A program made the position numbers and the translations under genes. The notes under the pieces were generated by a model, which had not been told where the DNA came from, searched no databases, and saw only the letters and a list, made by a program, of their open reading frames with translations. 64,000 nt of DNA from Chthoniobacterales bacterium. Lineage in GTDB: Bacteria > Verrucomicrobiota > Verrucomicrobiia > Chthoniobacterales > UBA6821. Location: NCBI GenBank assembly GCA_019747895.1, contig JAIEQF010000013.1, positions 67,104 to 131,103 on the forward strand. The letters are read 5' to 3'. This document shows, piece after piece, positions 1,213 to 63,520 of the stretch (its first letter is position 1; the number at the start of each line of letters is the position of its first letter).

Positions 1213-2082
1213 CTCTTTTTTTGGAGTCACATGATAACTCGCTGGCCAGCAGATTTGGCGACGGAGGAGCCAATGGACGCCGATCAAGTCAAGAATGCCA
1301 TGGCTCATTCTTTTGAAAATGGTGTAGTTTGATTGACCAAAGCGGCGAGGGCGATGATTTACTGGAAACTGTCCTAAGGTGAGCCCTGCGTTTTCTAACA
1401 TGGCAATCATGTAGCATTGCATTTGATTAAAAGGCATGAGGAATCGGAGATATTCTTTGCGGATGACTTTGAGCGTGCAGCCTGCATCGCGAACGGTATC
1501 ACCAGTAAAAAATTTGCGAACTTTATTGGCAACTTTAGAAGCGGCTTTGACCTGCCAACTATCTTTGCGATTTTTACGATAGCCGCAGACAACATCATAA
1601 TTTTTTGATTCGCGAACTAACATTGGAATATCAGCAGGATCGTTTTGACCATCTCCATCCATCAAGACGCAAAGGTCATGAGATGCTGCAAGTAAGCCGG
1701 CGTAGAGGGCTGCACTTTGGCCGAGATTTTTAGGGAAAGAGATCAAACGTACGTCGCTGAACTTTTTAATCAGTGATTCTGTTGCATCGTGACTCCCGTC
1801 ATTAACGGCAATGATTTCAGCATGAGGGTTGGTGAGGCGTGTTTCTTCCAAAACAGCAACGACGTTGTCTTTTTCGTTGTAGAAAGGAATGATGATCGAA
1901 ATAGACCTATTTGAAAACTCTACTGCTGACGCGCATAGCTGCGTCGCGCCGGTGCTCGAGTTGTCGAGTATTTCCTTATACACTCCGCCTCTGCGCTCCG
2001 TCGCTCCTTGCTCTGCATCGCCAGCAGCGAGTTTTGAAAGAGGTCTAGTGTTGAAAAAGGCTTGGTCGTGATCTTGAGACAT
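1207..2082 (-). CDS. Glycosyltransferase family 2 (polyprenol-phosphate sugar synthase-like) with a 48-aa PE1 insert near the N-terminus
   Basis: IIIPFYNE, VNDGSHD, NLGQSAAL, MDGDGQNDP motifs; insert RPLSKLAAG...VEFSNRS precedes the first beta strand. Confidence 0.88.
   Translation of the reverse strand: MSQDHDQAFFNTRPLSKLAAGDAEQGATERRGGVYKEILDNSSTGATQLCASAVEFSNRSISIIIPFYNEKDNVVAVLEETRLTNPHAEIIAVNDGSHDATESLIKKFSDVRLISFPKNLGQSAALYAGLLAASHDLCVLMDGDGQNDPADIPMLVRESKNYDVVCGYRKNRKDSWQVKAASKVANKVRKFFTGDTVRDAGCTLKVIRKEYLRFLMPFNQMQCYMIAMLENAGLTLGQFPVNHRPRRFGQSNYTIFKRMSHGILDLIGVHWLLRRQICWPASYHVTPKKEE
1902..2047. mobile_element. PE1 palindromic element copy A (146 bp), in frame in the GT2 gene
   Basis: Ends tagacctatttgaaaactc / gagttttgaaagaggtcta are imperfect inverted repeats; core cgtcgcgccggtgctc...tcgagt...atacactc is shared with the other copies. 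Confidence 0.92.
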
Positions 2083-2094: not shown

Positions 2095-2952
2095 TCACAT
2101 AGGAAGCAAGCCGACAAGGCGCATGGGAGCCTCGGTGCCATGAAGAGTCTTGATCGGAAGAGCCAAAATAAAACTTCCAGTTGGTGGCAGGCTGATAGAG
2201 TTGGCCACGTTTTCAACAATATATTTTTCAGATCCTAGAAAAGCCGCATGCACGGGATAGCCGCTCTCAGGCCGATCTGGAGAGAGTGTGTCGATGCCGA
2301 GGCCGACCGCTTTTCGCTGGATCAAGAAGTCGGCTGCTTCTTTGGAAACGGAAGGAAAGCGATAGTTGTTGTGATAGCGCTCTGGCTGATTCCAAAATTG
2401 ATCCCAGCCTGTTCTAATCAGAACAAAACTATTTGGCGCGATCATGCCCTCTTTTTTTTCAAAGAGTGCAAGATCATCGAGGGAGAGGGTGTAGCTTTCA
2501 TGAGCTTGCGCTGAGACATCGATCATCACGCAAGGTGCTATGAGATTGTTGAGATCTAGCTGTTCGACGGTTGCTTTTCCACGGCTGCAATGGGCTGGTG
2601 CATCGATGTGGGTTCCAATGCCGGCATGCATCTTGAGTTGTTGAACGCGAAAAGAAACATCGCTGGTTGTCAGATCGTAATCAAGTTTTACCTCCTGATG
2701 AAATCCACACGTGCCAGTCCATGAGGAGATTTTTTCATCGAGGGTGTGGGTCAGATCGATGATGTGATAAGGGAAAGCAGAGTCTGTCCAAATGCTACTG
2801 CTAGAGCGCAGGACTGCGTCACTCCGATGCTCGCGTCCTCGAGTATGTTCATATACACTGCGGGTCTGTGCTTCTCGTTCCTTGTCCTGCATCCCTAGCA
2901 GCGCATTTTGATCAGACTCGCCACTTACTATAGTAGCTAGATTTTTTTTCAT
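2095..2952 (-). CDS. Cyclase family / kynurenine formamidase-like metal hydrolase with a PE1 insert
   Basis: IIDLTHTL, HAGIGTHIDAPAH, GLGIDTLSPD, EAPMRLV motifs. Confidence 0.88.
   Translation of the reverse strand: MKKNLATIVSGESDQNALLGMQDKEREAQTRSVYEHTRGREHRSDAVLRSSSSIWTDSAFPYHIIDLTHTLDEKISSWTGTCGFHQEVKLDYDLTTSDVSFRVQQLKMHAGIGTHIDAPAHCSRGKATVEQLDLNNLIAPCVMIDVSAQAHESYTLSLDDLALFEKKEGMIAPNSFVLIRTGWDQFWNQPERYHNNYRFPSVSKEAADFLIQRKAVGLGIDTLSPDRPESGYPVHAAFLGSEKYIVENVANSISLPPTGSFILALPIKTLHGTEAPMRLVGLLPM
2780..2919. mobile_element. PE1 copy B (~140 bp), in frame in the cyclase gene, read in a third frame
   Basis: Ends gagtctgtccaaatgc / gcattttgatcagactc; core gcgtcactccgatgctcgcgtcctcgagt...atacact. 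Confidence 0.85.
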
Positions 2953-8727: not shown

Positions 8728-8747
8728 AGGTTGTAAGAAAAATTTTT

Positions 8748-8780
8748 CCTGTAACCTATAACCTATAACCTATAACCTGC
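8748..8780 (+). repeat. Heptamer tandem array, 4 nt before the ATG at 8785
   Basis: cctgtaa cctataa cctataa cctataa cctgc. Confidence 0.88.
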
Positions 8781-13368: not shown

Positions 13369-14940
13369 ATGGAAAAACGTACGTTCGAGGCGCTCGGCCT
13401 CTCTCCCGAGATGATGAAGGCTGTGGCTCAACTTGGCTTTGAGGAAGCCTCGCCGATTCAAACAGCGGCTATTCCACTTTTATTAAGTGGTGCTGATGTT
13501 GTTGGGCAATCTCAAACCGGTTCTGGAAAAACAGCAGCTTATGCTATTCCAGCTATTGAAAAAATAGATCCGACGAGCAAAGCAGTTCAAGTCTTGGTTC
13601 TCTGCCCAACGCGCGAGCTAGCAACACAAGTTGCGGATGAAGTTTATAAGCTGACAGCTTTCAAACGAAATATTCATTGTGTTCCGATTTATGGCGGCGC
13701 TTCCTACGAGCGTCAGCTTTTTGAATTAAAAAAAGGAGTTCAAATTGTCATTGGAACGCCAGGTCGTGTCATGGATCACTTAGAGCGTGGCACATTGAAG
13801 TTGGATCAGATTAAGGTTGTTGTTTTGGATGAAGCGGATCGCATGCTCGACATGGGATTCCGTGATGATATTCAAGTCATTCTTGAAAAGACACCTGAAG
13901 ATCGACAGACAGTTTTCTTTTCGGCAACGCTTTCCAAGCCGATTCGCGATTTGATTAATCGTTTTTCACATGAACCACAGACCGTCAAGATCGAGCAGAA
14001 GGAATTGACTGTTCCAACGGTTGAACAATGGTTTTATGAAGTTCCTGGACGCATGAAGACTGAAGCGTTTATTCGACTTATCGATTTTCATGGCTACAAA
14101 CTTGGGATCATTTTTTGTAATACGCAACGGATGGTTGATGAACTGGCTGATGCACTCTTGGCGCAGGGATTTTCAACCGATCGTCTTCATGGCGGCATTC
14201 CGCAAGCTCAGCGGACCCGCGTGATGAATAAATTTAAAAACTCTGAATTTGAATTTCTTGTGGCAACCGATGTGGCAGGACGAGGGATTGATGTTGAGTC
14301 TTTAGAGCTCGTGGTCAATTACGATCTTCCATACGATCCCGAGGATTACGTGCATCGCATTGGACGCACAGGACGAGCTGGAAAAAAAGGAGTAGCCATG
14401 ACCTTTGTCACGGGTCGTGATATTTATAAACTTCAATTTATTGAACGCTACACCAAAACAAAAATTCGTCGTGGGATACTTCCGACAGTCGGAGAGGTTG
14501 AAGGAAAACGTGCAGAACAACTTTACGCAAAACTCCAGAAACAACTTCAACAAAACTCGTTCAAAAAACATGAGATCATCATGGATCGTTTGTTAGAAGA
14601 GGGATATTCTTCGACTGATATTGGATCTGCTCTCTTTTCAATGCTATTGGGAAATGCTCCTGAAGCCCCTAAAAAAGTCGCTGTAGAGCCTTCTCGCGAG
14701 CGCGAGTCGCAAGATTTTTCTTTTGCGCAAGCTAAGGGAGGTCGAGGTGGGCATCGTAATGACCGCCGAGAAGCTCCTCGTGGAGGTCAAGGTTTTAAAA
14801 GTGGTCCTCCTCGCCGTGATCGGGGCGAACAACGCAGCGGACCTCCAAGGCGCAATAGCGACTACCGAGCTGATGCACCAAGAAGTGGTTCTTTTAAAAA
14901 AGGGCCCGTGCGCAAATATTCGAAGGCAGAAAGAAATTAA
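13369..14940 (+). CDS. deaD: DEAD-box RNA helicase (DeaD/CshA-like)
   Basis: Q motif, GSGKT, PTRELA, DEAD, SAT, HRIGRTGR; RG-rich tail. Confidence 0.92.
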   Translation: MEKRTFEALGLSPEMMKAVAQLGFEEASPIQTAAIPLLLSGADVVGQSQTGSGKTAAYAIPAIEKIDPTSKAVQVLVLCPTRELATQVADEVYKLTAFKRNIHCVPIYGGASYERQLFELKKGVQIVIGTPGRVMDHLERGTLKLDQIKVVVLDEADRMLDMGFRDDIQVILEKTPEDRQTVFFSATLSKPIRDLINRFSHEPQTVKIEQKELTVPTVEQWFYEVPGRMKTEAFIRLIDFHGYKLGIIFCNTQRMVDELADALLAQGFSTDRLHGGIPQAQRTRVMNKFKNSEFEFLVATDVAGRGIDVESLELVVNYDLPYDPEDYVHRIGRTGRAGKKGVAMTFVTGRDIYKLQFIERYTKTKIRRGILPTVGEVEGKRAEQLYAKLQKQLQQNSFKKHEIIMDRLLEEGYSSTDIGSALFSMLLGNAPEAPKKVAVEPSRERESQDFSFAQAKGGRGGHRNDRREAPRGGQGFKSGPPRRDRGEQRSGPPRRNSDYRADAPRSGSFKKGPVRKYSKAERN

Positions 14941-14968
14941 CCGCAAAGAACGCAAAGAGCGCAAAGAA
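14936..14968 (+). repeat. 9-mer REP-like repeat beginning at the deaD stop codon
   Basis: attaaccgcaaagaacgcaaagagcgcaaagaa. Confidence 0.85.
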
Positions 14969-14975
14969 GATAGAG

Positions 14976-16715: not shown

Positions 16716-16870
16716 CAGGTTACAGCCTTACAGGTTACAGGTTGTCAGCAAATGCGATTGATGAAAATATTTCTAAAAAATGAAACCAAAGAAAAAGTAA
16801 CAAAAGAAAAAATAAATTTCATAAAAATTTTCTTCAGCCTGTAACCTGTACGCTATAACCTGTATACCTG
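16716..16870. repeat. Inverted pair of heptamer arrays (16716-16744 and 16835-16870); the second ends 4 nt before the ffh ATG
   Basis: caggttacagccttacaggttacaggttg / cagcctgtaacctgtacgctataacctgtatacctg. Confidence 0.8.
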
Positions 16871-16874: not shown

Positions 16875-18368
16875 ATGTTTTCCCGTCTTTCCGATCAACT
16901 TCAACAAACTTTTAAAAATCTCCGAGGCCAAGGACGTATCACCGAGGCCAATATTTCTGAAGCGCTCCGCGAAGTCCGCCTTGCCTTGCTTGACGCCGAT
17001 GTTCATTTTCAAGTTGCCAAGGATTTTATTGCGAGAGTCAAAGAAAAAGCCTTAGGAGAGACGGTTCTAAAAAGCGTTGCTCCAGGGCAGCAGATCATCA
17101 AAATTTTTCAAGATGAGTTAACGCAATTACTCGGCGGAGATGCCGCTCCTCTTAATTTAAACAAGCCAGCGCGCATTTTAATGGTCGGACTGAATGGTGC
17201 AGGAAAAACAACTTCTTCTGCCAAGTTAGCAAAATGGTTAAAAGCACAAGGGCAACATCCGATGCTCGTAGCGCTTGATTTGGTCAGGCCAGCAGCTATT
17301 GAGCAGCTTGTGACGTTAGGAAAACAAATCGAGGTTCCTGTTTTTGCGCCAGTAGACTTCTTCCGAAACTCTACTTCTGACGCGAATTGCGGCGTCGCTC
17401 CGGTGCTCGCGTCATCGAGTATTAATTATACACTCAGCCGCTGTGCGCCGGAGGCTCCTGGCACTTCGTCGCCAGAAGCGAGTTTTGAAAAAAGTCTAGT
17501 GCCTGGTTCTACTAATGTTTTAGCGGTGGCTCGTGAAGCTCTTGCTTGGTGTGAGCAGCAACATGGCAATGTGACTATTTTTGATACAGCGGGACGTCGA
17601 GAAATTGATGAGGCGCTTGTGAATGAATTGAGTCAATTAAAAGAGTTGTTCCAACCACAGGAGATTTTATTGGTTTGTGACGGAGCTACCGGACAACAGG
17701 CAGTGAGTGTCGCGGAACGATTTCACGCAGCACTCGGGCTAACGGGGCTCATTCTTACTAAATTAGATGGTGATGCTCGTGGTGGCGCTGCTCTTTCTTT
17801 GCGTTCAGTGACTGGGAGGCCGATTAAATTTGTGGGTGTCGGAGAGAAGCTTGATCAATGGGATCTGTTTCATCCTGATCGCCTCGCGGGACGTATTCTT
17901 GGAATGGGAGATATTGTTAGTTTTGTCGAAAAAGCAGCAGAGGCTGTTGAGATGGATGAGATGATGCAATTGGAGAAAAAATTAAAAACATCTTCCTTGG
18001 ATCTGAATGATTTTTTAGCTCAGTTGAAAATGATTCGACGGATGGGGCCCTTAGAAAATCTTGTTGGGATGTTGCCTGGGGGAGCGAAACTTCCTCCCAA
18101 TGTCACGAATGGAAAAGAACTCACCAGGATAGAAGCCATCATTTTTTCAATGACTCTCGAGGAACGAAAACGCCCGGAGATCCTTAATGCACGCCGTCGC
18201 CATCGGATTGCGCAGGGGAGTGGTACCACGGTAACGGAAGTCAATAGCCTCCTTCTTCGCTTTCAGCAACTCAAGAAGATGACAAAAAACATGGGGAATA
18301 TGAAAAAAATGCTGGCCCAATTCGGGAAAAGCGGATTAAATATGCCCAACCGTTCTTGGAGAGCATAA
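16875..18368 (+). CDS. ffh: Signal recognition particle protein Ffh with a 48-aa PE1 insert in the GTPase domain
   Basis: GLNGAGKTT, DTAGR, TKLDGDARGG, RILGMGD and M-domain motifs. Confidence 0.96.
   Translation: MFSRLSDQLQQTFKNLRGQGRITEANISEALREVRLALLDADVHFQVAKDFIARVKEKALGETVLKSVAPGQQIIKIFQDELTQLLGGDAAPLNLNKPARILMVGLNGAGKTTSSAKLAKWLKAQGQHPMLVALDLVRPAAIEQLVTLGKQIEVPVFAPVDFFRNSTSDANCGVAPVLASSSINYTLSRCAPEAPGTSSPEASFEKSLVPGSTNVLAVAREALAWCEQQHGNVTIFDTAGRREIDEALVNELSQLKELFQPQEILLVCDGATGQQAVSVAERFHAALGLTGLILTKLDGDARGGAALSLRSVTGRPIKFVGVGEKLDQWDLFHPDRLAGRILGMGDIVSFVEKAAEAVEMDEMMQLEKKLKTSSLDLNDFLAQLKMIRRMGPLENLVGMLPGGAKLPPNVTNGKELTRIEAIIFSMTLEERKRPEILNARRRHRIAQGSGTTVTEVNSLLLRFQQLKKMTKNMGNMKKMLAQFGKSGLNMPNRSWRA
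17353..17498. mobile_element. PE1 copy C (146 bp), in frame in ffh
   Basis: Ends tagacttcttccgaaactc / gagttttgaaaaaagtcta, TA at both ends; deleting 144 bp restores VPVFAPV-VPGSTNVLAVAREAL. Confidence 0.95.
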
Positions 18369-22200: not shown

Positions 22201-22968
22201 ATGAAATGTGTCATTTTAGCAGGTGGCCTTGGAACCCGCATTAGCGAAGAAACGGTGCTCAAGCCAAAACCAATGGTAGAAATCGGAGGGAAGCCCCTTC
22301 TTTGGCATGTGATGAAAATTTATTCCGCACATGGCATTAACGACTTCATTATCTGTGCTGGCTACAAGGGATATTTGATCAAAGAATATTTTGCTAACTA
22401 TTTTCTGCACATGTCAGATGTTACTTTTGACATCAAAGAAAATAGTATGGAGGTTCATGAGCGTTATGCTGAGCCATGGAAAGTGACCGTTGTGGATACG
22501 GGAGAGGAGACGATGACTGGAGGGCGTTTAAAAAAAGTAGCTCGTTATCTTGGAGCCGAGACGTTTTGTATGACCTATGGTGACGGAGTGGGAGATGTTG
22601 CTATTCCAAAGGTTTTAGAAGCACATCATTGCAGTCAGCGCAAAGCCACCATCACTGCAGTGCAGCCACCAGGGCGCTTCGGAGCGCTTCATCTTGAAAA
22701 TGATGCCGTCGCTCATTTTATTGAAAAGCCAGAGGGTGATGGCGCTTGGATTAATGGTGGTTTTTTTGTTTTAGAGCCAGAGGTGCTTTCCTACATCGAG
22801 CATGATCAGATCATCTGGGAACGAGAACCCTTGCAGCGCCTTGCTCAGGAAAAAGAATTGTCGGCTTATCAACATCATGGTTTTTGGCAGCCAATGGACA
22901 CCCTTCGTGACAAGCAGCTGCTTGAAGAGTTGTGGCATAAGGGGCAGGCTCCGTGGAAGATTTGGTAA
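22201..22968 (+). CDS. rfbF: Glucose-1-phosphate cytidylyltransferase
   Basis: [43 protein letters not shown]. Confidence 0.96.
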
Positions 22969-23111
22969 ACCTGCCTTGTAAGTTCTACTGAGAGAGCGAA
23001 GAGCTGCGTTACTCCGGTGCTCGTCGCTTCACGTATTAGATATACGCTCAGCGCCTGTGCTCCGAGGCGCCTTGCTCTTCATCACTCTCAGCGAACTTCC
23101 AAAGCAGGTTA
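22967..23111. mobile_element. PE1 copy D, intergenic, starting at the rfbF stop codon
   Basis: Ends aacctgccttgtaagttc / gaacttccaaagcaggtt; core ctccggtgctcg...tatacgctcagcgcctgtgc. Confidence 0.88.
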
Positions 23112-23145: not shown

Positions 23146-23306
23146 ATACCATCTTTAATAATTACTAAGACCATTTGACTTGTTCTTTTGGCGCTGAGCA
23201 TCGTTGTCATCCCTAGCGTTATCTTTGGATAGCGCTTCGGTCTGACGCCTTGCTTAACGCCAAAACTCCTGCCTCAAATAATCTCATTAATTATTAAAGA
23301 TGGTAT
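23146..23306. mobile_element. PE2 palindromic element / MITE-like, copy 1
   Basis: Perfect 19-bp terminal inverted repeat ataccatctttaataatta; internal gacttgttcttt...gcgttatc-tttg-gatagcgc...aaaactcctgc. Confidence 0.85.
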
Positions 23307-26018: not shown

Positions 26019-26219
26019 ATGATCACTCAACAACCGCCGCCGCATCCTTCCAGTTCTCATTTGGCAGAGGCTTCTTGTGAAGATCTTTCCTTCGATTCTA
26101 TTCCCTATGATGTAGAGCTCATCGCCGCTATCGAAGAGGCTCGGGCTGAGATTAGATGTGGAGAATTTATTACACACGAAGAACTTGAAAAAGAATTTTA
26201 TTCATGGTTTTTCGAATAA
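26019..26219 (+). CDS. Antitoxin, paralogue of 19059-19256
   Basis: AIEEARAEIRCGEFITHEELEKEFYSW. Confidence 0.72.
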   Translation: MITQQPPPHPSSSHLAEASCEDLSFDSIPYDVELIAAIEEARAEIRCGEFITHEELEKEFYSWFFE

Positions 26220-26503
26220 TTGTCTCTCCCGGAGCAAGGCGTGATCTTAGAGGGATTCAACGTTATATTTCTATTGATTCGCCTCAAGCAGCTCTACGCT
26301 TTGGTCAACGACTTCTGAAAAAACAAGAAATGCTTGGAAGTCATCCTGAAATAGGACGTGTCGTTCTTGAAATAGGTAATCGAGCGGTACGAGAGCTTAT
26401 TGTTGGAAATTATCGATTGATTTATGAAGTCAATTTTTTGAACAAGGAGATTGAAATATTTCGCTACTGGCACGCTGCTCGAGGGATTCCAAAGGTCACT
26501 TGA
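26204..26503 (+). CDS. RelE/ParE-family toxin, paralogue of 19241-19537
   Basis: FRIIVSPGARRDLRGIQRYISIDSP, RELIVGNYRLIY. Confidence 0.9.
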   Translation: MVFRIIVSPGARRDLRGIQRYISIDSPQAALRFGQRLLKKQEMLGSHPEIGRVVLEIGNRAVRELIVGNYRLIYEVNFLNKEIEIFRYWHAARGIPKVT

Positions 26504-27589: not shown

Positions 27590-28468
27590 ATGAAACAGGA
27601 GCTTATCATTAATCATCGAGCTGTCGGTAATGGACATCCCGCTTATATTATTGCAGAGATTGGGATCAATCATAACGGAAGTGTTGAAATAGCAAAGAGC
27701 CTCATTTCAATTGCAAAAAATTCTGGATGTGATGCAGTCAAGTTTCAGAAACGCACCGTTGATATTGTTTACACGGCAGAAGAATTAGCTAAGCCTCGTG
27801 AAAATCCGTTTGGTGCTACCAATGGTGATTTGAAGCGTGGCTTGGAATTTGGAGTTGAGCAGTACCGTGAGATCGATGAGTTTTGTAAAGAAATAGAGAT
27901 GACGTGGTTTGTTTCGTGCTGGGATGAACCTTCCGTTGATTTTATAGAACAGTTTAAAATGCCTTGTTATAAAATTGCTTCAGCTTCTCTCACTGATGAT
28001 GCCTTGTTGCGATACACGCGGGCTACTGGAAAACCTATTCTGCTTTCAACGGGCATGAGTACTTATAAAGAAATTGATCATGCTGTAGAAATTTTAGGCA
28101 AGCATGATCTTATCTTGATTCATACCTGCAGCACCTATCCTTCCAAATACAACGAACTAAATCTGCGCGTCATTCCTGAGCTGTATAAACGTTATGGCGT
28201 TCCTGTCGGCTATTCAGGCCATGAGACAGGGATTGCTTCTTCGGTAGCGGCGGTGACTCTTGGAGCTTGTCTTATTGAACGTCATATTACACTCGATCGT
28301 GCTATGTGGGGCTCAGACCAAGCCGCTTCCTTGGCTCCCAGTGGACTTTCCCATTTGGTGCGTGATATTCGACTTGTTGAAGAATCGATGGGCGATGGAG
28401 TCAAGATTGTTCAAGAGAGTGAGATTCCTGTCATGAAGAAACTTCGTCGAGTAGGATGTAAGTCATGA
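27590..28468 (+). CDS. NeuB/SpsE-family keto-deoxy-ulosonic acid synthase (no C-terminal SAF/AFP domain)
   Basis: IAEIGINHNG, DAVKFQ, KIASA, STGMS, GYSGHE, IERHITLDR. Confidence 0.9.
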   Translation: MKQELIINHRAVGNGHPAYIIAEIGINHNGSVEIAKSLISIAKNSGCDAVKFQKRTVDIVYTAEELAKPRENPFGATNGDLKRGLEFGVEQYREIDEFCKEIEMTWFVSCWDEPSVDFIEQFKMPCYKIASASLTDDALLRYTRATGKPILLSTGMSTYKEIDHAVEILGKHDLILIHTCSTYPSKYNELNLRVIPELYKRYGVPVGYSGHETGIASSVAAVTLGACLIERHITLDRAMWGSDQAASLAPSGLSHLVRDIRLVEESMGDGVKIVQESEIPVMKKLRRVGCKS

Positions 28469-29160
28469 TTCCAAATAGACCGCTCTCAAAACTCGCTGAT
28501 GGTGATGAAGCGCAAGGAGGCGACGGCGCACAGCGACTGAGTGTACAAGAGCATACAGCCGGCTGGGAGGCCGCTGGATCAAATGCCGAAGGCAGCCCCA
28601 GAGGGGCGAGCCTCGCGGGAGCGAGCGAGTTGCTCCTCGATGGCGCGAGCGCCGGCGCGACACAGCGCTTCGCATCAGCAGTAGAGTTTGGAAAGCGGTC
28701 TAAAATCAAAGCAATCGTTCTCGATATAGATGGAGTCTTAACTGATGGGACTTTTTGGTGGGATCTTAATGGTGGTGAACAAAAACGTTTTAGTTTTCGT
28801 GATGTGATGGGGATTGTGCGAGCAGGACGAAAGGGAATTTTATTTGCACTCATTTCTGGAGAAGAAAATGTCATGGTCGATCGCCTTGCTGCAAAACTGA
28901 ATATTGATTCTGTTTATCAGGGATGTTCTGACAAAGCCTCAGCTCTTCGCTCTTTTGCAAAAGAAAAAAATCTTTCACTCTCAGAAATTTGTTTTATGGG
29001 AGATGACATCAATGATCTTGACGCGATTGAGATTGCAGGCTATTCCGCAGCTCCTGCAAATGCTCATGAAAGCGTCTTGAGTGCGGTCGATTTTGTTGTA
29101 AGAAAATCGGGAGGCGATGGAGCTGTGAGAGAGTTAATTGATTCTTTAGTTGCGATATGA
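28465..29160 (+). CDS. KdsC-like HAD phosphatase with a 75-aa PE1 insert after residue 4
   Basis: LDIDGVLTDG, ISGE, MGDDINDL, GGDGAVRE; ATGA overlap with the neuB-like stop supports the start. Confidence 0.9.
   Translation: MIPNRPLSKLADGDEAQGGDGAQRLSVQEHTAGWEAAGSNAEGSPRGASLAGASELLLDGASAGATQRFASAVEFGKRSKIKAIVLDIDGVLTDGTFWWDLNGGEQKRFSFRDVMGIVRAGRKGILFALISGEENVMVDRLAAKLNIDSVYQGCSDKASALRSFAKEKNLSLSEICFMGDDINDLDAIEIAGYSAAPANAHESVLSAVDFVVRKSGGDGAVRELIDSLVAI
28476..28702. mobile_element. PE1 copy E, long form (227 bp), in frame
   Basis: Ends tagaccgctctcaaaactc / gagtttggaaagcggtcta; carries an extra ~81-nt central module shared with copy H. Confidence 0.93.
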
Positions 29161-36315: not shown

Positions 36316-38706
36316 ATGTTTTCTCACAAAAAAATATCACCAAAAACAAAACTGAGCCTTCTTACGGGCTTGCTCTTTATTGTTGTCATCGGAATTGTAT
36401 GGCTTTTGCAGACTCCATCTCCTGAAGAAGCTTTTGGCGATACAGGAAAATTTTGGGATTTGTTGCGGACGACTTGTGGTGGATGGACTCCAACATTCAT
36501 GCTAGGGCATAGTGCAACTATTTACCACGTAGCGATCATTGATCTTTTCGTTCATTATCTTTTTGTCCCTTTTCAATCTTTCTTAACGTTATTTGTCATC
36601 ACGAAGATTATTGGGCTTGTTTCCCTAGCAGCCAGTGGAGTGACGATGTTCTTTTTTATTCGGCGGTTGACGCGGGATGAGACGCAGGCGGCTGTGGCAG
36701 GATTGGCCTATGTGATGATGCCATCGATCACGGTGGCGATGGGCATTTATGAGCATTTCAGCGTGACGCTTTGTTTTGTTTTTGTCCCTTTGATTTTGCG
36801 AGGGATTTTAGTTTTGTCGGAAGAAGCATCGCCACGAGAAATTGTAGGACTCGGTTTAGCAGCTAGTGCGATTGCGTTGAGTTATACAAAAATCGCCGTC
36901 GTGATTTCGCCAATCCTTTTGTTGTGGACGTTGGAAGTCTTGCGTTTGCAGCCTGCGAATGCTCGTTTGAAAATCATGGGGCATTACGCCGTGAGTGCTG
37001 GTCTGGCACTAGCGCTGGCGCTTCCTTTTTTGTTGCCGGCTTCACGTGAGTTTGGTTTTGCCGCAGGATTTCTTTTTGATCCGCTGGATGGATGGCAGCA
37101 TCATTACGCTTTTAAGTCAGCGCTCCAGTGGATCGATCTCTGGGGTGTTTTCATCAAAGGTTCTGGTCCTAATGTTGAAAGGGATTCTGTGATGTTTGCC
37201 ATTGGGTTGATGCCGATGCTCGGCATTTCTTTTGGGTTGGGTCTTTCTTCTCTTGAAGAGTGGCGCCGCTCTTCGCTCGGACGTTGGTTTTTGATCTTAG
37301 TAGCTTGTTGGTTGCTTTCTATTAATCTGGCTGCTGGTCCTGATGGGGTTCTTTTAGGACATTGGCATCTTTTGAAAGAGAGTGCTCGTGGCATGTTTGA
37401 CTTTGCTATTCCTTGCCTTTGGTTTGCTCTGGCGTGGCTGGTTTGGATGAGTTATCAGACCATTTGTTGTCTTATTGGAGGCAAAGCATGGCGCTCCTGG
37501 TTGTTGTTGGCCGTGTTTTTGGCGACGCCATTTTTTCGCATCGCTGCAGCATTTCCTCTTTTTAACGACATTCGCGCCCCTGAATCTTTTTGGAGTGTTG
37601 GTGGTTTTTGTGTCTTGGCGGCCGCGGTGGGGATGGTCACGGTGGCACTTTTTACAAAAGTGATTTTAAGTCGACTTCGTGTGATCAGCGCCATCGGTAT
37701 TGGGCTTCTTTTTTTATTAGAGCTCTATCCGATTCACTCTGCTTATTGGACGCGAGGGCTTCCTGAGGAACTTTTTTCTGATTACGATCAAGCTCTTGTT
37801 TTTTTAAAAAATGCTCCTTTGCCCGGTCGCGTGCACCCTCTTTGTAGTCGCTATTTTTATTTAACTATTCCTCAGAAGACAGGCCGCTCTCTTAGTACCG
37901 AAGCGCTTCTGCGTCATTTTGAGTTAAAATGGGTTCGACATTTTGAGGCTGCAGGAATGGCTAATATCGATGCGATGAAAAGCTATCTGAACCTTGCTGG
38001 CGTTTCTTATATTTTCATTGATAAAGAAGATCCGCTAACACCGAAGCAGGCGCAAGACGTCTATCGTTCCTTCTTTCCGGTCGTTTTTGAAAATCGTTCG
38101 ATTGCTATCTTAGCCAATGAAGCCTCGCTCTATCCTGCTTTTTTGGCGCGTAACTTTGTTGCGCTCCCTCTGGAAAGCTACCAGCAGGCTCCGATGGCCT
38201 TGCAGTTGGCAAGAATGAATCTCCTTGGAGTAGAGCTTGCGCAAAGCGATCAAAGACAGAGTGGGTTTGCAGGAAGAGCTACTGGAAATAATCAGGTGGA
38301 GCTTCTCCCTCAATACCAAGGCCGCGGAGGTGCTCCTTTTCAACGTGTGGCGTCTGTTGGTAATCGTGCTGATGATTATGGAAAGATGACCTATCGTTTG
38401 CCACCTACAGTTTCAGGATGGCTAACAGTTACTGAGGCCTTTCATCCAGATTGGACCGCAATGATCGATGGGCAGCCAGCTGATATTCATCGTGCTGCTG
38501 CTGCATTGCTTTCTGTCTATGTGCCACTCGGGTCTCAAGAAATTATTTTTAAATTTATTCAACCTGCTTGGTATACGCTTTCATTTTATTTGGGATGCTT
38601 CCTCTGGTTCATGGCGCTGGGAGGATTTATCTTCTTTCGTACTCGCTGGGCGCGTTCTGATTTGAAAACCTGGTGGTTAGGTTCTTATACCACTTCCATT
38701 AAATAA
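36316..38706 (+). CDS. Multi-pass membrane protein, YfhO-like GT-C candidate
   Basis: Many TM segments; C-terminal WLTVTEAFHPDWTAMIDG motif; last residues and stop come from a PE2 end. Confidence 0.65.
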   Translation: MFSHKKISPKTKLSLLTGLLFIVVIGIVWLLQTPSPEEAFGDTGKFWDLLRTTCGGWTPTFMLGHSATIYHVAIIDLFVHYLFVPFQSFLTLFVITKIIGLVSLAASGVTMFFFIRRLTRDETQAAVAGLAYVMMPSITVAMGIYEHFSVTLCFVFVPLILRGILVLSEEASPREIVGLGLAASAIALSYTKIAVVISPILLLWTLEVLRLQPANARLKIMGHYAVSAGLALALALPFLLPASREFGFAAGFLFDPLDGWQHHYAFKSALQWIDLWGVFIKGSGPNVERDSVMFAIGLMPMLGISFGLGLSSLEEWRRSSLGRWFLILVACWLLSINLAAGPDGVLLGHWHLLKESARGMFDFAIPCLWFALAWLVWMSYQTICCLIGGKAWRSWLLLAVFLATPFFRIAAAFPLFNDIRAPESFWSVGGFCVLAAAVGMVTVALFTKVILSRLRVISAIGIGLLFLLELYPIHSAYWTRGLPEELFSDYDQALVFLKNAPLPGRVHPLCSRYFYLTIPQKTGRSLSTEALLRHFELKWVRHFEAAGMANIDAMKSYLNLAGVSYIFIDKEDPLTPKQAQDVYRSFFPVVFENRSIAILANEASLYPAFLARNFVALPLESYQQAPMALQLARMNLLGVELAQSDQRQSGFAGRATGNNQVELLPQYQGRGGAPFQRVASVGNRADDYGKMTYRLPPTVSGWLTVTEAFHPDWTAMIDGQPADIHRAAAALLSVYVPLGSQEIIFKFIQPAWYTLSFYLGCFLWFMALGGFIFFRTRWARSDLKTWWLGSYTTSIK

Positions 38707-38848
38707 TCGGACTATTGTGACTTATTCTTTTGCTCCCTAGCTTCGTTGTCAGAGCTTACGTTATGCTTGCATAGCGCCTCACTCTTCTGACTTGCTAGAA
38801 ACCAAAACTCCTGCGTCCTATAGTCTCATTATTTAATGGAAGTGGTAT
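38687..38848. mobile_element. PE2 copy 2, between two convergent genes
   Basis: Perfect 21-bp terminal inverted repeat ataccacttccattaaataat; same internal motifs as copy 1. Confidence 0.85.
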
Positions 38849-39837
38849 TAGTCCTCAAAATCAAACGGATGATTTTTTAATGCTGGCAACCATTCTTGTA
38901 CCCAAGCAATAACGCTATCAATGCCATCTTCTAATTCAATATTGGGAGACCAATAAAGTTCGCGGTGACTTTTGGTGTTATCTAAGAGATAGGCTGCATC
39001 TTTACCGGGACGATCTTCAACAATGGTCACCGCATTCTCAAAAGTAACATTCATACGATCGCAAATCAAAGCTACAAGATCACTAATTGAAGTGAAGCGA
39101 CTAGTTGAAAGATGATAAGCTTCGCCTGGAGTGCCCTGGCGAGCAGCCTTTAAAGTGCCTGAGACAACGTCATCGACATGAATAAAAGAGCGTACCGCAT
39201 GACCTTTACCATGAAGGGGGATTTTTTTTCCTAACAAAATGGAGAGGATGGTGCGAGGGATGATGCGATGAGTCCGTTGTCCAGGGCCATAAACGTTTGC
39301 TGCCCGAGTAAAGACAACAGGAAAGGAGTCGTTTTTAAAAATAGCGTTGAGGTGCCATTCGCAAGCAGCACGCGATGCGCCATGATGGGTGCTAGGATTA
39401 AAAGATTGGGTTTCTACGACAGGGTCTTGGCATGTTCCATAAACTTCAGGAGTAGAAACGTGAACATATTTTTTAAGAAAGGAAAAATGTTTTAATCGAT
39501 CATGAAGCTTGGTGTTGCTAAAAAAGTTGGTTTGGTACCACTCTTCGATTCCTTTGTTGTTTTTTGATGCTCTGCGCTGTGCAGCAAAATTAATCACATA
39601 ATCTGGTTTGTAAGCCCGAATCACGTTAGCTATTTCGTCAGTGTGCTGATTGAGGTCGAATTGTTCAAAAGAAAAACCGCGACCCGCTCCATGTTTCCAA
39701 TGATAAGGAGTGAAGGGAATGCTTGGTTCTGCCGAGCGGCTAATGCCTAAGACCCTAGATTCTTGGGTGAGAGCGTGATGAACAAAGTGGCTTCCTGAAA
39801 AAGAATTGCTTCCAATAACAACGATTTTTTCACTCAT
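38848..39837 (-). CDS. NDP-sugar 4,6-dehydratase-like extended SDR
   Basis: GSNSFSG, NFAAQ, STPEVYG, RAANVYGPGQ, DRPGKDAAY; the catalytic YxxxK appears as HGASR, so activity is uncertain. Confidence 0.75.
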   Translation of the reverse strand: MSEKIVVIGSNSFSGSHFVHHALTQESRVLGISRSAEPSIPFTPYHWKHGAGRGFSFEQFDLNQHTDEIANVIRAYKPDYVINFAAQRRASKNNKGIEEWYQTNFFSNTKLHDRLKHFSFLKKYVHVSTPEVYGTCQDPVVETQSFNPSTHHGASRAACEWHLNAIFKNDSFPVVFTRAANVYGPGQRTHRIIPRTILSILLGKKIPLHGKGHAVRSFIHVDDVVSGTLKAARQGTPGEAYHLSTSRFTSISDLVALICDRMNVTFENAVTIVEDRPGKDAAYLLDNTKSHRELYWSPNIELEDGIDSVIAWVQEWLPALKNHPFDFED

Positions 39838-41720: not shown

Positions 41721-41925
41721 CCACAAAGAACTACAAAAAAAGAAGAAATTAACCGCAAAGAAGGAAATACAAAAAGTTGAAGGTAGAGGCTTCCTTGGTT
41801 AATGTTCTGTATTCATTCGCATGAGAATCGAAGCTTATGAATTTGAGAGAGCAAGCTGCTGTCAGATTTTTTCTTTGCGTTCCTTGCGGTTAATTATTTT
41901 TCCTTATGTTATTTTGCGGTTAATT
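41716..41925. repeat. Inverted 9-mer REP-like pair between sufC and sufB
   Basis: aattaaccacaaagaa...ttaaccgcaaagaa (41716-41763) versus ttctttgcgttccttgcggttaat...ttgcggttaatt (41869-41925). Confidence 0.8.
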
Positions 41926-43354: not shown

Positions 43355-43389
43355 AAAAAAGAATGAGTCACAAAGAATATTTAGAAAAA

Positions 43390-43590
43390 AGAATAGCCAC
43401 AAAAGAACGCAAAGAACGCAAAGAAAGAAAATTGAGCTGATAGCATATTCTTTAGTGTCGCTTGCAATCTACTTTTGAATGCAGGAAAAGTAAGCGAGGT
43501 AGTATTATTTTTTGCGTTCTTTGTGTTCTTTTGTGGCTATTCTCTTCTTTTCCTTAAGTTACTTTATGGCTATGCTCTTCGCGGTTAATT
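43390..43590. repeat. Inverted 9-mer REP-like pair between sufB and sufD
   Basis: gaatagccacaaaagaacgcaaagaacgcaaagaa versus ttttgcgttctttgtgttcttttgtggctattc. Confidence 0.85.
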
Positions 43591-60518: not shown

Positions 60519-62939
60519 ATGAAAAACCTAACTCGCTTCTTAATCACACTTGCTTTGGTTGCCGTTGCTGCTCGAGGAGGTGATCAAAAACTTCCCATTG
60601 CACAACAAAATGCGCTTGATGAAAACAGTGTTCTCTTTGTGCCGCAAGGCTACGACGCGAAGACCAATCCTTCGTTTGCCTTTGAACAACCGCTTAAGCC
60701 ACTTGGGCCTGTTCCTAAACATTGGAAACTCTTTCCTCGTTTTTCATCAGATGTAAAAACAACAAAGGTGATTCTTGATGTTCCCTTCCAAGCCTCTCTC
60801 TATGGGACAGGGGAGGTGACTGGTCCGCTCTTGCGTAATGGAAAGAAAATCACGCTCTGGAATACTGATAGCTCAACTTACGCTGTTGCTCATGGCAAGC
60901 GCCTTTATCAAACGCATCCGTGGGTGTTGGGAGTGCGTCTTGATGGAACCGCTTTTGGTATTATTTTTGACACAACGTGGAAAGCAAAATTGGAGACAAC
61001 GTCACATCAGATCGTTTTAATGAGTGAAGGTCCTCCATGTCGCGTGGTTATCATCGAGGGAAAAAATCCACAAGTCGTCGTTCGCAAGCTGGCGGATCTG
61101 ACCGGAAAAATGCCACTTCCGCCAAAATGGGCGATTGGCTTTCAACAATGCCGCTATTCTTATTATCCCGATGCAAAGGTGCGTGAGATTGCCGATCAAT
61201 ATCGTGCTCGTCATCTGCCGTGTGATGTCATCTGGCTCGACATTGATTACATGGATGGGTATCGCAGTTTTACGTTTGATCCAAAGCGTTTTCCTGATCC
61301 TAAGGCCACGAATGACTATTTGCACGAGCATGGCTTTCACTCTGTTTGGATTATTGATCCTGGAATCAAGATTGATCCTAACTATTTTGTCTATCAACAG
61401 GGGACAAACCTGCTTTCAAATTCTACTGAGGCTGTGAATAACAGCGTCGCGCCGGTGCTCGCGTCATCGAGTAGCAACTCGCTCGCTCCCGCGAGTCTCG
61501 CCCTTACGGGCTGCCTAACGGCAGTCGATCCAGCGGCTGCCACGCCGCATGTATGTAGAGATACACTCAGCCGCTGTGCGCCGTCGGCTCCTTCTTCTTC
61601 ACTACCCTCAGCGAATTTTAAAGCAGGTTTGCGAGCAGGGGGGGTGAATACTGCTTGGGTGCTGACTAAAAATGGTCAACCGTTTCATGGCACTGTCTGG
61701 CCGGGAGATTCTGTCTTTCCTGATTTTACGATGCCTGCCGTGCGGCATTGGTGGTCGGAACTCTATCATGATTTCTTAGCTCAAGGAGCTGATGGCATTT
61801 GGAACGATATGAATGAACCTTCGGTTTTTAATGGTCCTCGTCAGACGATGCCTGAAAATAATTGGCATCGCGGAGGAGGGGGGCTTCCTTCTGGTATTCA
61901 TCGGATGTATCACAATGTTTATGGAATGCTGATGGCATCAGCAACGCGGGCTGGTATCTTGCACGAGCGTCCTGACAAACGTCCGTTTCTTTTGTCACGC
62001 TCCAATTATCTCGGGGGCCAGCGCTATGCGACCACATGGACTGGAGACAATAGTTCCGGGATGCATTATTTGAAAATGTCGATTCCGATGGGGCTCAATC
62101 TTGGTCTTTCGGGATCGCCTTTTAATGGGGTTGATCTTGGTGGTTACGCGGGGAGAGAAAACCCTGATCTTTTTGGAAAATGGATTGTGATGTCAGCCTT
62201 TTTTCCTTTCTCGCGAGCTCACACAGCCACCTACAATCCTCCGAGAGAGCCATGGGTTTTTGGACCCAAAATTGAAACCGTCACTCGTGTCGCTTTGGAA
62301 CGGCGATATCGCATGTTGCCTTACCTCTACACGCTCTTCCACAAAGCCTCGCAATACGGTGATCCGATCATGCAGCCAGTTTTCTTTGCTGATCCCAAAA
62401 ACTTGTTGCTTCGTTCTGAAGATCAAGCTTTTCTTTTGGGGACAGATCTCTTGGTGGTGCCGCGTTGGGCTCGCTTTCCACGGTTGCCGGGAGGTATTTG
62501 GCGTGATGTTTCTCTTCTTCCCGGAAAACGGGAGGAAGATGGATATCAGCCTCGCATCAAGATCCGCGGTGGTGCCATTGTGCCACTCGGTCGGGTGATT
62601 CAAAACACCAACGAAGAATCACTGAAGCCGTTGACGTTGCTTGTTTGTCTCAATGAAAAAGGGGAAGCGCGTGGAAGTCTCTACGAAGACGCTGGCGAAG
62701 GCTTCGGTTATAAAACGGGAGACTATGCGCTGACGCATTATCACGCCATTCGCAAAGGAAAGACCGTAATGGTCACCATGGAAAAGCGAGAAGGGAATCG
62801 CGCTATTCCAGATCGTCCCGTCCATGTGCAGTTGGTCGTCAATGGTCCAGACTTAGAAAAGAGCGGTTTTGAATCAGGAGGGGTTGTCTTAAAGCTGCCT
62901 CTCAACCTCTATGAAAAAATAGCAGAAAAAACAAAATAA
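60519..62939 (+). CDS. GH31 alpha-glucosidase with a 75-aa PE1 insert
   Basis: IWLDIDYM, IIDPG, GIWNDMNEP (nucleophile), TWTGDN, RYRMLPYLY. Confidence 0.93.
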   Translation: MKNLTRFLITLALVAVAARGGDQKLPIAQQNALDENSVLFVPQGYDAKTNPSFAFEQPLKPLGPVPKHWKLFPRFSSDVKTTKVILDVPFQASLYGTGEVTGPLLRNGKKITLWNTDSSTYAVAHGKRLYQTHPWVLGVRLDGTAFGIIFDTTWKAKLETTSHQIVLMSEGPPCRVVIIEGKNPQVVVRKLADLTGKMPLPPKWAIGFQQCRYSYYPDAKVREIADQYRARHLPCDVIWLDIDYMDGYRSFTFDPKRFPDPKATNDYLHEHGFHSVWIIDPGIKIDPNYFVYQQGTNLLSNSTEAVNNSVAPVLASSSSNSLAPASLALTGCLTAVDPAAATPHVCRDTLSRCAPSAPSSSLPSANFKAGLRAGGVNTAWVLTKNGQPFHGTVWPGDSVFPDFTMPAVRHWWSELYHDFLAQGADGIWNDMNEPSVFNGPRQTMPENNWHRGGGGLPSGIHRMYHNVYGMLMASATRAGILHERPDKRPFLLSRSNYLGGQRYATTWTGDNSSGMHYLKMSIPMGLNLGLSGSPFNGVDLGGYAGRENPDLFGKWIVMSAFFPFSRAHTATYNPPREPWVFGPKIETVTRVALERRYRMLPYLYTLFHKASQYGDPIMQPVFFADPKNLLLRSEDQAFLLGTDLLVVPRWARFPRLPGGIWRDVSLLPGKREEDGYQPRIKIRGGAIVPLGRVIQNTNEESLKPLTLLVCLNEKGEARGSLYEDAGEGFGYKTGDYALTHYHAIRKGKTVMVTMEKREGNRAIPDRPVHVQLVVNGPDLEKSGFESGGVVLKLPLNLYEKIAEKTK
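61405..61631. mobile_element. PE1 copy H, long form (227 bp), in frame in GH31
   Basis: Ends caaacctgctttcaaattc / gaattttaaagcaggtttg (18/19 complementary); central module shared with copy E. Confidence 0.94.
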
Positions 62940-62982: not shown

Positions 62983-63192
62983 ATGCCAAAAGCAATCGCA
63001 CGTAGTAAAACAAAGAAGTCTGTTGCAAAACGATTCAAAATCACAGCGACAGGTAAAGTCATTCGCTCCAAAGCCGGACGCCGCCACTTGCTGGAATGTA
63101 AGAATTCCAAGTTAAAACGCAATATGGGCAAACGCGCTGTGGTGGAAGCTTGTGATGTGAATCATATCAAAGCAAACCTCCCTTGGGGATAA
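62983..63192 (+). CDS. rpmI: 50S ribosomal protein L35
   Basis: KTKKSVAKRFKITATGK...GRRHLLECK; precedes rplT. Confidence 0.95.
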   Translation: MPKAIARSKTKKSVAKRFKITATGKVIRSKAGRRHLLECKNSKLKRNMGKRAVVEACDVNHIKANLPWG

Positions 63193-63332
63193 TTTCCTCA
63201 TAAATTCTACTGATGCAGCGAGGAACGGCGTCATGTCGGTGCTCGCGTCATCGAGTATTAATTGTACACTCAGCCACTGTGCGCGGCCGTTACTTGTTCC
63301 TTATCTGCCTTAGCGAATTTCTAAGGGAATTA
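63190..63332. mobile_element. PE1 copy I, intergenic, starting at the rpmI stop codon
   Basis: Ends taatttcctcataaattc / gaatttctaagggaatta; core cggtgctcgcgtcatcgagtattaattgtacactcagcc. Confidence 0.9.
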
Positions 63333-63520
63333 TTATGTATTGATAGATTTTGCGTTGGCAAGGAGCTCAGTAACTGATAAATTATAACTTCAATTTTTAA
63401 AACGATTCATGGAACTGGGTATTTGTACAAATACTCTAACCGGGCGGGTGAGTTCCTGAATCATTAACTAACAAACAGCCTGCCCGAGGAGACTCTTTGC
63501 GAAAGCAAAGAGAATTACAT

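Follow-up and report, generated by a model that had tools for sequence, protein, structure and literature searches.

The 64-kb stretch of Chthoniobacterales DNA analyzed here (part of contig JAIEQF010000013.1; hereafter the window) carries a palindromic element, termed PE1, at positions 28476–28702. This copy is located inside a gene for a KdsC/YrbI-type phosphatase and is one of nine PE1 copies that nhmmer detected in the window with a profile built from six window copies. Seven of the nine lie within long open reading frames (ORFs) and two are intergenic (Table 1). PE1 adds a new and diverged member to a known kind of element, the Rickettsia palindromic elements (RPEs), and does so in a new phylum. 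RPEs are a textbook case of selfish DNA within protein-coding genes, and RPE-1, the family to which PE1 is related, was reportedly described by Ogata and colleagues in 2000 and 2002.

The element at 28476–28702 and its relationship to RPE-1

The sequence-only reading had placed a palindromic element at this site and quoted its ends. Both are exact, with TAGACCGCTCTCAAAACTCGCT on the left (28476–28497) and AGTAGAGTTTGGAAAGCGGTCTA on the right (28680–28702). The chance expectation for either end is zero matches (100 shuffles), and each has one extra near-match, which falls at another PE1 copy. Translated in frame S0, the sense frame, the core (RPLSKLADGD...AVEFGKRS) corresponds to residues 5–79 of the KdsC-like ORF. 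The product reads MIPN-RPLSKLADGDEAQGG...AVEFGKRS-KIKAIVLDIDGVLTDG, with the element in frame after codon 4. The TIGR01670 match (120.6 bits) covers residues 81–229 (C-terminal 150 residues), and phosphatase homology begins at residue 76–81, directly behind the insert. The ATG of the ORF overlaps the stop of an upstream NeuB-like ORF (ATGA). An antisense reading had been proposed for this copy, which was incorrect: the copy is on the + strand, and RPLSKLA comes from the sense reading of ORF 28465–29160. The peptide motifs quoted in the same reading are all present, but they are spread over different copies. RPLSKLA, G-A-T-E-R, VYKE, and STGAT are found in the copy at 1903–2046 (− strand), whereas AVEFGKRS is found in those at 28477–28701 and 48450–48593. 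The copy at 28477–28701 has SAGAT instead of STGAT and is without GxTER and VYKE.

The core at 28477–28701 folds into one long hairpin with a branched apex (DNA minimum free energy −64.3 kcal/mol, z −5.5). It is a long form of PE1 with an extra apical segment, which was delimited by the alignment of long and short forms and by blastn of the segment. This 81-nt segment is also present at 61475–61555 and in seven loci from metagenome-assembled genomes (MAGs; six LacPavin and one Chthoniobacter sp. MAG). The long forms at 61404–61630 and 28477–28701 are 77% identical. A PE1 copy in a LacPavin MAG (L027:2136–2357) has a different insertion of 78 nt in the left hairpin arm, and both insertion lengths are multiples of 3.

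The resemblance of PE1 to RPE-1 is homology, and the DNA evidence is decisive. An nhmmer profile built only from 13 Rickettsia RPE-1 copies matched window copies over the full length of the profile (model 2–152; E 7e-16, 1.3e-10, 1.9e-7, and 1.7e-5). The top match was the copy in ffh (17354–17497, E 7e-16), and the degraded copy at 2781–2918 was matched at E 1.9e-7. Both halves of 28477–28701 were matched as well (E 0.004 and 0.008), and the same profile found nothing in a reversed-window control. The reciprocal profile, built from window copies only, recovered RPE-1 from 99 kb of Rickettsia DNA, with eight full-length copies at E 1e-15 to 7e-9.

The peptides point in the same direction. An hhalign comparison of a 14-sequence PE1 profile with a 5-sequence RPE1 profile gave 93.7% probability and E 1.9e-7 over 47 ungapped columns from end to end. 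In BLASTP, the peptide of 1903–2046 and a Rickettsia RPE1 protein have 18 of 46 positions identical (39%) and no gaps (E 9e-9 as a single comparison). Among 18,950 NCBIfam models, TIGR01045 (RPE1) is the sole family matched by PE1 peptides (5 of 14, best E 2.6e-4); the peptide of 1903–2046 scores 19 bits (E 0.001). Frame S0 in PE1 is the same as in Rickettsia RPE-1. The RPE-1 peptide given in the sequence-only reading, which was used here purely as a search probe, proved accurate, as it retrieved Rickettsia proteins named "palindromic element RPE1 domain-containing protein" at 78–84% identity. When the PE1 peptide alignment was used to search proteins, the matches were limited to short ORFs from Verrucomicrobia-type contigs, and none was a Rickettsia protein. 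Thus, the proposed resemblance to RPE-1 is borne out in both DNA and peptide. By DNA homology and anatomy, PE1 is a diverged member of the RPE-1 family, and its peptides are below the curated threshold of that family.

The TIGR01045 scores of S0 peptides from other lineages are graded. Canonical Rickettsia copies score 100–102 bits, followed by a lake Rickettsiales MAG (L042, 65), the orphan ORF P0019 (54), Wolbachia and one Gammaproteobacteria MAG (48), Holosporales (43), and Legionella MAGs (32–35). P0019 is a 75-aa ORF that combines PE1-like ends with an RPE1-like center and is 52% identical to RPE1 and 46% identical to PE1. It comes from a 547-bp contig of NCBI assembly GCA_041445565.1 and possibly belongs to a symbiont whose DNA was assembled with that of a eukaryote. 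The RPE-1 copies in L042, whose title reads "MAG: Rickettsia typhi isolate ZH-03apr19-31," differ widely from those of canonical Rickettsia and have ends closer to PE1; the species label of this MAG looks doubtful.

As had been suspected, the host is not alphaproteobacterial. The window Ffh is 86–87% identical to those of the lake MAGs LacPavin_0419_WC53_MAG_45_28 and K_DeepCast_35m_m1_007, 79% identical to that of a Chthoniobacter sp. MAG, and 59–67% identical to those of MAGs labeled Chthoniobacterales or Spartobacteria. The next matches are from Dehalococcoidia and Actinomycetales (41–43%). These identities indicate that the contig is verrucomicrobial. Because PE1 copies are in frame inside verrucomicrobial genes, contamination or a chimeric assembly is excluded, and a Rickettsiales origin of the contig is likewise excluded by the Ffh placement. 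A Chthoniobacterales host and homology to RPE-1 together establish the cross-phylum sharing that had been suggested.

PE1 and Rickettsia RPE-1 are alike in having a 144-nt core with AGAC...GTCT termini and a long hairpin, with lineage consensuses that are collinear, equal in length, and 71% identical. Both are read in the same frame as R.LSK...G.TE.R..Y....STG.T.....F.K.S. and are inserted in frame into unrelated housekeeping genes. In contrast to RPE-1, PE1 resides in Verrucomicrobiota (Chthoniobacterales), has a higher G+C content, forms a separate clade (99% bootstrap), and uses a second, antisense frame about as often as S0. PE1 also differs in having a long form with the 81-nt apical insert and in its low TIGR01045 scores.

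Anatomy, target duplication, and insertion sequences with matching ends

In the multi-copy alignment, the conserved unit runs AGAC...GTCT (GGACC...GGTCC in Holosporales) and is bordered by a 3-nt direct repeat. Terminal inverted repeats of 16–17 nt (AGACYTCTTTCNAAAC) are present at both ends and are conserved across phyla. The 3-nt direct repeat is perfect in 118 of 181 elements, which come from all lineages. A-N-T is found on both sides of 136, with a middle base that is the same in 116 of these and complementary in 12, which indicates that the flanking 3 nt are a target-site duplication rather than an extension of the palindrome. Perfect repeats flank 43 of the 70 elements in the first set, as opposed to 1–3 of 70 in offset controls and a maximum of 26 with permuted pairings. 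A TA duplication of the Tc1/IS630-like type was ruled out; Holosporales copies end TGGACC...GGTCCA, and the statistics favor 3 bp.

The core is exactly 144 nt (48 codons) long in 51 of the 70 elements of the first set, and its length is divisible by 3 in 128 of the 181 (225 nt in the long form). Core and duplication together make 147 nt, or 49 codons; therefore, the frame is never shifted by insertion, in any phase. Most Chthoniobacterales copies have no stops in three of the six frames. The S0 sense frame encodes RPLSKLAAGDEEQG..GAQRLSV.LILDDASTGATPQFASAVEFGKRS, and the antisense frame A1 encodes DFFQNSTADANCGVAPVLASSSINYTLSRCAPEAPGTSSPAASFERS. Of 22 Chthoniobacterales copies from other MAGs, nine are within ORFs of 150 codons or more that are open in S0 and seven within such ORFs open in A1, one copy being counted in both.

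The copy in ffh illustrates these features. On the + strand it is flanked by AGT/AGT, a perfect duplication, and it interrupts the SRP54 GTPase domain. In the closest MAG (LacPavin, L110), the ffh ortholog has an empty site and exactly 49 codons fewer than the window gene, such that the insert is a presence/absence polymorphism between close relatives. Compared with solved Ffh structures, a 6-residue strand-helix connection is replaced in the window protein by 56 residues, made up of the 49 inserted codons and some diverged residues on their flanks. In the Verrucomicrobia MAG K_DeepCast_35m_m1_007 from Tanganyika (L126:2001–2966), the same Ffh loop holds a different PE1 subfamily. Either the loop is an insertion hot spot, or an old insert was replaced by conversion.

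The hairpin spans the whole core and comprises 41 pairs. Pairing holds in 95.8% of cells across 34 copies from three lineages, compared with 35–46% in slid controls, and 27 of the 41 pairs have compensatory changes (0 of 500 shuffles reach the observed values). Single-copy DNA folds also beat all shuffles (z −4.1 and −5.5). [quoted passage not shown]

Six insertion sequences (ISs; L166 and L244–L248) were counted as matching the MITE in their ends, with the same duplication seen at L245 and L166; all but L244 are listed in Table 1. A search for parent ISs by terminus pairs 0.3–6 kb apart found only L166 to be a real IS; the candidates L080, L088, L147, and L150 consisted of ordinary genes between two MITEs. 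In L166, two ORFs joined at an A7 run (CCAAAAAAAGAC) encode a 284-aa transposase, which matches NCBIfam NF033581 (IS5 family, 218 bits) and Pfam HTH_Tnp_4 and DDE_Tnp_4. The split is compatible with programmed frameshifting or a pseudogene. The Holosporales IS (L245) encodes a 275-aa IS5 transposase, and its ends are those of RPE-1/PE1. The terminus of the Orientia IS is identical over 17 nt to that of a Legionella MITE, and in a Holosporaceae contig (L205), such a transposase gene begins 50 nt downstream of an RPE-1-type terminus. [quoted passage not shown]

The ISL2-group ISs, such as ISOt1 of Orientia and ISCaa3 of Amoebophilus, resemble PE1 in their termini (AGACYTCTTTCNAAAC) and in the A-N-T duplication, which is seen at L245 and L166. 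They differ in being autonomous elements of about 900 bp with a 275-aa HTH_Tnp_4 + DDE_Tnp_4 transposase, whereas PE1 encodes no transposase and has an unrelated interior. ISOt1 has a cognate MITE, mISOt1; the Orientia genome paper reports that ISOt1 and its MITE are not conserved in Rickettsia and that the short repeats of Orientia are unrelated to RPEs (PMC2575882).

The coding palindromic repeats of Wolbachia (Ogata, Suhre & Claverie 2005, as cited in PMC1779305) are likened to PE1 here through the Wolbachia copies found in this analysis. These match PE1 in their termini, in the 144-nt core, and in the A-N-T duplication, and the S0 peptide of one (RPLSKPIYDEKFLGEV...EIEFRKRS) scores 48 bits on TIGR01045. 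In contrast to PE1, they reside in an alphaproteobacterial host and have a more diverged interior.

Other small bacterial repeats, namely Correia/NEMIS, ERIC, RUP, and Coxiella QMITE1/2, are like PE1 in being multicopy stem-loops with terminal inverted repeats and occasional in-frame fusions (PMC2229807, PMC10969869, PMC5896051). However, they have no sequence relation to PE1, and none is reported with a frame-preserving length rule. Many bacterial MITEs, among them Correia, ERIC, and RUP, have TA at their termini and QMITE2 has 7–11-nt direct repeats, as opposed to A-N-T in PE1 (PMC2229807, PMC10969869, PMC5896051). The IS982-derived MITE of Cardinium and the Coxiella QMITEs were considered as relatives and proved unrelated.

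Among eukaryotic elements, PIF/Harbinger transposons and Tourist-type MITEs are comparable in having an IS5-related DDE_Tnp_4-type transposase and a large MITE progeny. These eukaryotic elements prefer a TAA/TTA target rather than A-N-T and are not known to act as coding inserts. Canonical members produce a 3-bp duplication (PMC12730594).

RPEs have been described as Rickettsia elements, with one family common to Wolbachia (PMC1779305, PMC1458961, PMC10969869), and a review table gives their target duplication as "?" (PMC2229807). No transposase was assigned to RPEs in the literature searched. The search, which had the original RPE descriptions of 2000 and 2002 outside its scope, found no work in which RPEs are brought together with Verrucomicrobia, Holosporales, Legionella, or IS5/ISL2; some of the points made here may already appear in those descriptions or in database annotation.

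Copies in the window and distribution of the family

Beyond the element at 28476–28702, PE1 copies in the window occur in both sense and antisense orientation relative to their host genes (Table 1). No family was assigned to the 591-aa ORF that carries the diverged copy at 48450–48593. A Pfam search of the insert peptides gave no match, an Rfam search of the window gave no match, and no tRNAs were found in the window.

Table 1. Coordinates of PE1 copies and associated features in the window, and of insertion sequences with matching ends in other genomes.
Feature	Location	Strand	Size	Context and details
PE1 long-form core	28477..28701	+	225 nt (75 codons)	Starts AGACCGCTCTCAAAAC, ends GTTTGGAAAGCGGTCT
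Host gene	28465..29160	+	231 aa	KdsC/YrbI-type HAD phosphatase
Target-site duplication, left copy	28474..28476	+		AAT; family-wide pattern A-N-T
Target-site duplication, right copy	28702..28704	+		AAA, one mismatch to AAT
Apical extra segment of long form	28547..28632	+	~81 nt (27 codons)	Boundaries good to ~5 nt
PE1 short core	1903..2046	−		Frame S0 (RPLSKLAAGDAEQGATERRGGVYKEILDNSSTGATQLCASAVEFSNRS), near N-terminus of family-2 glycosyltransferase (1207–2082, −)
PE1, degraded	2781..2918	−		N-terminal part of putative cyclase gene (2095–2952, −); family-profile E 9e-23
PE1 short core	17354..17497	−	144 nt	Inside ffh (16875–18368, +), antisense frame A1 (DFFRNSTSDANCGVAPVLASSSINYTLSRCAPEAPGTSSPEASFEKS)
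PE1 short form	22967..23111	−		Intergenic, just past nucleotidyl-transferase ORF (22201–22968)
PE1, diverged	48450..48593	−		S0 (...AVEFGKRSN), in 591-aa ORF (47331–49106, −)
PE1 short form	49912..50057	−		Antisense frame in mutL (49566–51500, +), between ATPase and DNA_mis_repair domains
PE1 long form	61404..61630	−		Antisense within GH31 glycosidase gene (60519–62939, +); splits TIM-barrel domain match
PE1 short form	63189..63333	−		Intergenic, upstream of rplT (63497–63889)
IS, Rickettsia endosymbiont of Bradysia coprophila	L166:3455..4358		904 bp	Ends AGACYTCTTGCATAACC; duplication AAT/AAT
IS, Holosporales contig	L245		912 bp	Ends AGATTTCTTTCCAAACC / AGACCTCTTTCCAAACC; duplication ATT/ATT
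IS, Orientia	L248		906 bp	Ends AGACTTCTTTCGAAACT; flanks not direct (ATT/AAT)
IS, Wolbachia	L247		894 bp	Ends AGACTTCTTTCAAAATT
IS, Amoebophilus (ISCaa3)	L246		912 bp	Ends AGAG.TCTTC.GAAAC

Several other repeats are present in the window. A second MITE-like element of about 160 nt, with 32–33-nt terminal inverted repeats, has two copies that are 73% identical (23146–23306 and 38684–38851), the first of which abuts the PE1 copy at 22967–23111. An intergenic inverted-repeat family is based on AACCGCAAAGAACGCAAAGA / TCTTTGCGTTCTTTGCGGTT, with arms that are usually 30–450 nt apart (669–726 and 1169–1221; 14923–14969; 41724–41780 and 41862–41914; 43385–43435 and 43504–43555; 47146–47216 and 47280–47330; 60352–60408 and 60423–60507). 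They may represent terminator-like hairpins or a further kind of small repeat. Arrays of the heptamers CCTGTAA/CCTATAA are located at gene ends (158–196, 8741–8779, 16824–16862, and 51529–51567; as reverse complement at 3502–3528, 16729–16755, and 49464–49490), and a 168-nt direct repeat (54655–54822 and 55087–55254) is 96% identical, with 432 nt between its copies. Two small overlapping ORFs (26019–26219 and 26204–26503) resemble by eye a type II toxin-antitoxin pair, the second being ParE/RelE-like.

Outside the window, dozens of PE1 copies were found in MAGs labeled Verrucomicrobiia, Verrucomicrobia, or Chthoniobacter (E down to 1e-43). When the window was compared with the fetched loci, the PE1 repeat was the sole similarity outside orthologous genes. 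A motif common to PE1 and RPE-1, comprising the center and right end, was scanned over one genome per species and gave eight chance matches, with about seven expected (an estimate). One of the eight, a match in Chlamydiae (L108), falls in EF-G. The other matches are all true elements and come from Rickettsia, three Holosporales MAGs, and four more Chthoniobacterales MAGs. The common PE1/RPE-1 motif was not found in viral contigs, and RPE-1 was not found in plasmids.

A scan with the termini alone returned more than 117 loci, and the carrier taxa given here are among the matches listed. Near-full-length nhmmer matches are present in Legionella (E to 9e-36; the cultured species L. anisa and L. 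steigerwaltii are among the carriers), Coxiellaceae (6e-28), Wolbachia (8e-15), Legionellales and Legionellaceae MAGs, several Gammaproteobacteria MAGs, MAGs of Rickettsiales and other Alphaproteobacteria, and one Burkholderiales MAG. Elements in Cytophagales, Rickettsiella, and a Chlamydiae MAG have only the termini and duplication in common with these. The existence of a wider RPE-1 superfamily, which the sequence-only reading had offered as one possibility, is strongly supported by the copies in Holosporales, Legionella/Legionellales, Coxiellaceae, Wolbachia, and other Alpha- and Gammaproteobacteria MAGs. Moreover, because TIGR01045-positive copies are found outside Rickettsia (Holosporales, Legionella, Wolbachia, and Gammaproteobacteria MAGs), it is the definition of the RPE-1 family, rather than the element, that needs to be revised.

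In a neighbor-joining tree, all Chthoniobacterales copies form one clade (99% bootstrap) and Holosporales copies form another (100%). These lineage-specific amplified subfamilies give no sign of recent cross-phylum transfer. The Holosporales MAG Cd354_bin5 (JAIRNW01; L043–L109) has up to eight copies per 8 kb, with about 82% mean identity and mostly perfect duplications. Many of its contigs end inside a copy, which indicates that the assembly breaks at the repeat.

Competing explanations and implications

Taken together, these findings make it very likely that the element at 28476–28702 is a non-autonomous transposon, i.e., a MITE, that represents a Chthoniobacterales-specific RPE-1 subfamily and is probably moved by a transposase of the ISL2 group. 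The 144-nt core (225 nt with the 81-nt apical insert) forms one long imperfect hairpin, and 3 bp (A-N-T) are duplicated on insertion. Insertion into a tolerant loop or terminus would leave the gene translatable, with an extra peptide of about 49 residues (76 residues at 28476–28702). Frame-keeping insertion and the availability of stop-free frames account for copies inside essential genes such as ffh. [quoted passage not shown] We infer that an ISL2-type transposase moves PE1 in the Chthoniobacterales lineage and that the insert-bearing proteins are made and functional, and any route by which the family reached Verrucomicrobiota is equally conjectural.

Several observations weigh against this interpretation. 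The first concerns TIGR01045, which the sequence-only reading had named as a check and which has a curated cut-off of 30 bits. The check formally failed, as window copies score 12–21 bits (14–19 in one comparison) and other Chthoniobacterales copies 12–29 bits, all below the cut-off, and the peptide of 28477–28701 has no match, with or without its apical insert. The duplication at the same copy is imperfect (AAT/AAA). Similarity between ISs and MITE is limited to the terminal 22–30 nt, and the MITE interior of about 100 nt does not come from the sampled ISs. The link to the ISs is thus one of termini and duplication only, and the interior has a history of its own. No IS5/ISL2 transposase turned up in the window or, with the exception of L166 and L205, in the fetched loci (1.75 Mb, of which an estimated 0.4 Mb is Chthoniobacterales DNA). 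The carriers from the termini-only scan are neither a full list nor a fair sample of taxa. In addition, many carrier genomes are MAGs with possibly wrong labels or binning; Chthoniobacterales are exempt from this concern, given that their copies lie inside lineage-typical genes.

Recent horizontal transfer from Rickettsia or another intracellular bacterium that shares an amoebal or other eukaryotic host, the first alternative offered by the sequence-only reading, would also explain an RPE-1-like element in this phylum, and we consider it unlikely. The family is common in bacteria that dwell in protists or arthropods (Rickettsia, Holosporales, Legionella, Coxiellaceae, and Wolbachia), the top matches of related transposases are in Neochlamydia, Amoebophilus, Orientia, and Babeliaceae, and the copies of the lake Rickettsiales MAG (L042) and PE1 have CAAACTCGCT and GTAGTAGAGTTTGGAAAGAAG ends in common. 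However, the Chthoniobacterales and Holosporales copies are in separate, well-supported clades, and even the most similar pair of Rickettsia and Chthoniobacterales copies is only 74% identical. PE1 has adopted the higher G+C content of its host through compensatory changes in the stem, and the presence of the family in MAGs with Ffh only 60–87% identical implies long residence. Furthermore, no copy was found on plasmids or viral contigs, and nothing indicates host association of these Chthoniobacterales.

Slightly less probable again is an independent origin in each phylum by internal deletion of ISL2-type ISs, in which case only the termini would be common by descent and no MITE would have passed from one phylum to another. 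In its favor, the Cytophagales, Rickettsiella, and Chlamydiae MAG families have the same termini and duplication but unrelated interiors, and the IS group itself is very widespread. In contrast, the interior of PE1 is conserved across Rickettsia, Holosporales, Legionellales, and Chthoniobacterales (e.g., GAGTGTAC..GTAC and TTCGAGYACCGG....ACG), with invariant alignment columns and near-full-length nhmmer matches across lineages, and this conserved interior is absent from the sampled ISs. The 144-nt length and coding frame S0 are also kept throughout. The cross-phylum conservation of the interior speaks for common descent of the MITE itself.

A selected module, either a peptide domain useful to host proteins or an RNA/DNA signal such as a terminator or REP-like site, appears quite improbable. 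The motifs LSK, STG.T, and EF.K.S are conserved across phyla despite very different G+C contents, covariation maintains the hairpin, and a Rickettsia guanylate kinase with an RPE insert is translated and active (summarized in PMC2229807). Nevertheless, the host proteins (GT2, cyclase, Ffh, KdsC, MutL, and GH31) are unrelated and the insert positions arbitrary, the same DNA is read in two orientations to give unrelated peptides, and the insert is absent in close relatives. Some copies are intergenic, many have stops in S0, neither Rfam nor Pfam gave a match, and the A-N-T duplication marks transposition.

Finally, chance or compositional convergence of coding palindromes, or Rickettsiales contamination, would fit the sub-threshold TIGR01045 scores of the window peptides and the absence of any score for 28477–28701, but this reading is already refuted by the reciprocal DNA profile matches (to E 1e-15, with an empty reversed control), graded intermediates such as P0019, the identical length, termini, duplication, and frame, and the copies inside verrucomicrobial genes in several independent MAGs.

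With PE1 regarded as a MITE of the RPE-1 family, a broader scenario is conceivable, although we hold it to be somewhat less than an even prospect. RPE-1 would be one branch of an old, multi-phylum group of frame-preserving coding MITEs that are driven by ISL2-type transposases and exchanged among bacteria that meet inside protists or arthropods. If this is true, the occurrence of PE1 in Chthoniobacterales from lakes and soil would be a sign that this lineage is or was associated with eukaryotic hosts, and the long-open questions of where RPEs originated and what moves them would be answered.

In practical terms, genes with such inserts are prone to mis-annotation in Verrucomicrobia MAGs, where they can be taken for frameshifted, elongated, or hypothetical genes, and some MAG contigs break at PE1-type repeats. 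The whole-codon rule and a candidate ISL2-group transposase with matching ends and duplication are leads that the analysis opens. For the family as a whole, the window shows that RPE-1 also lives in a different phylum, with a host range that is centered on, but wider than, intracellular bacteria.

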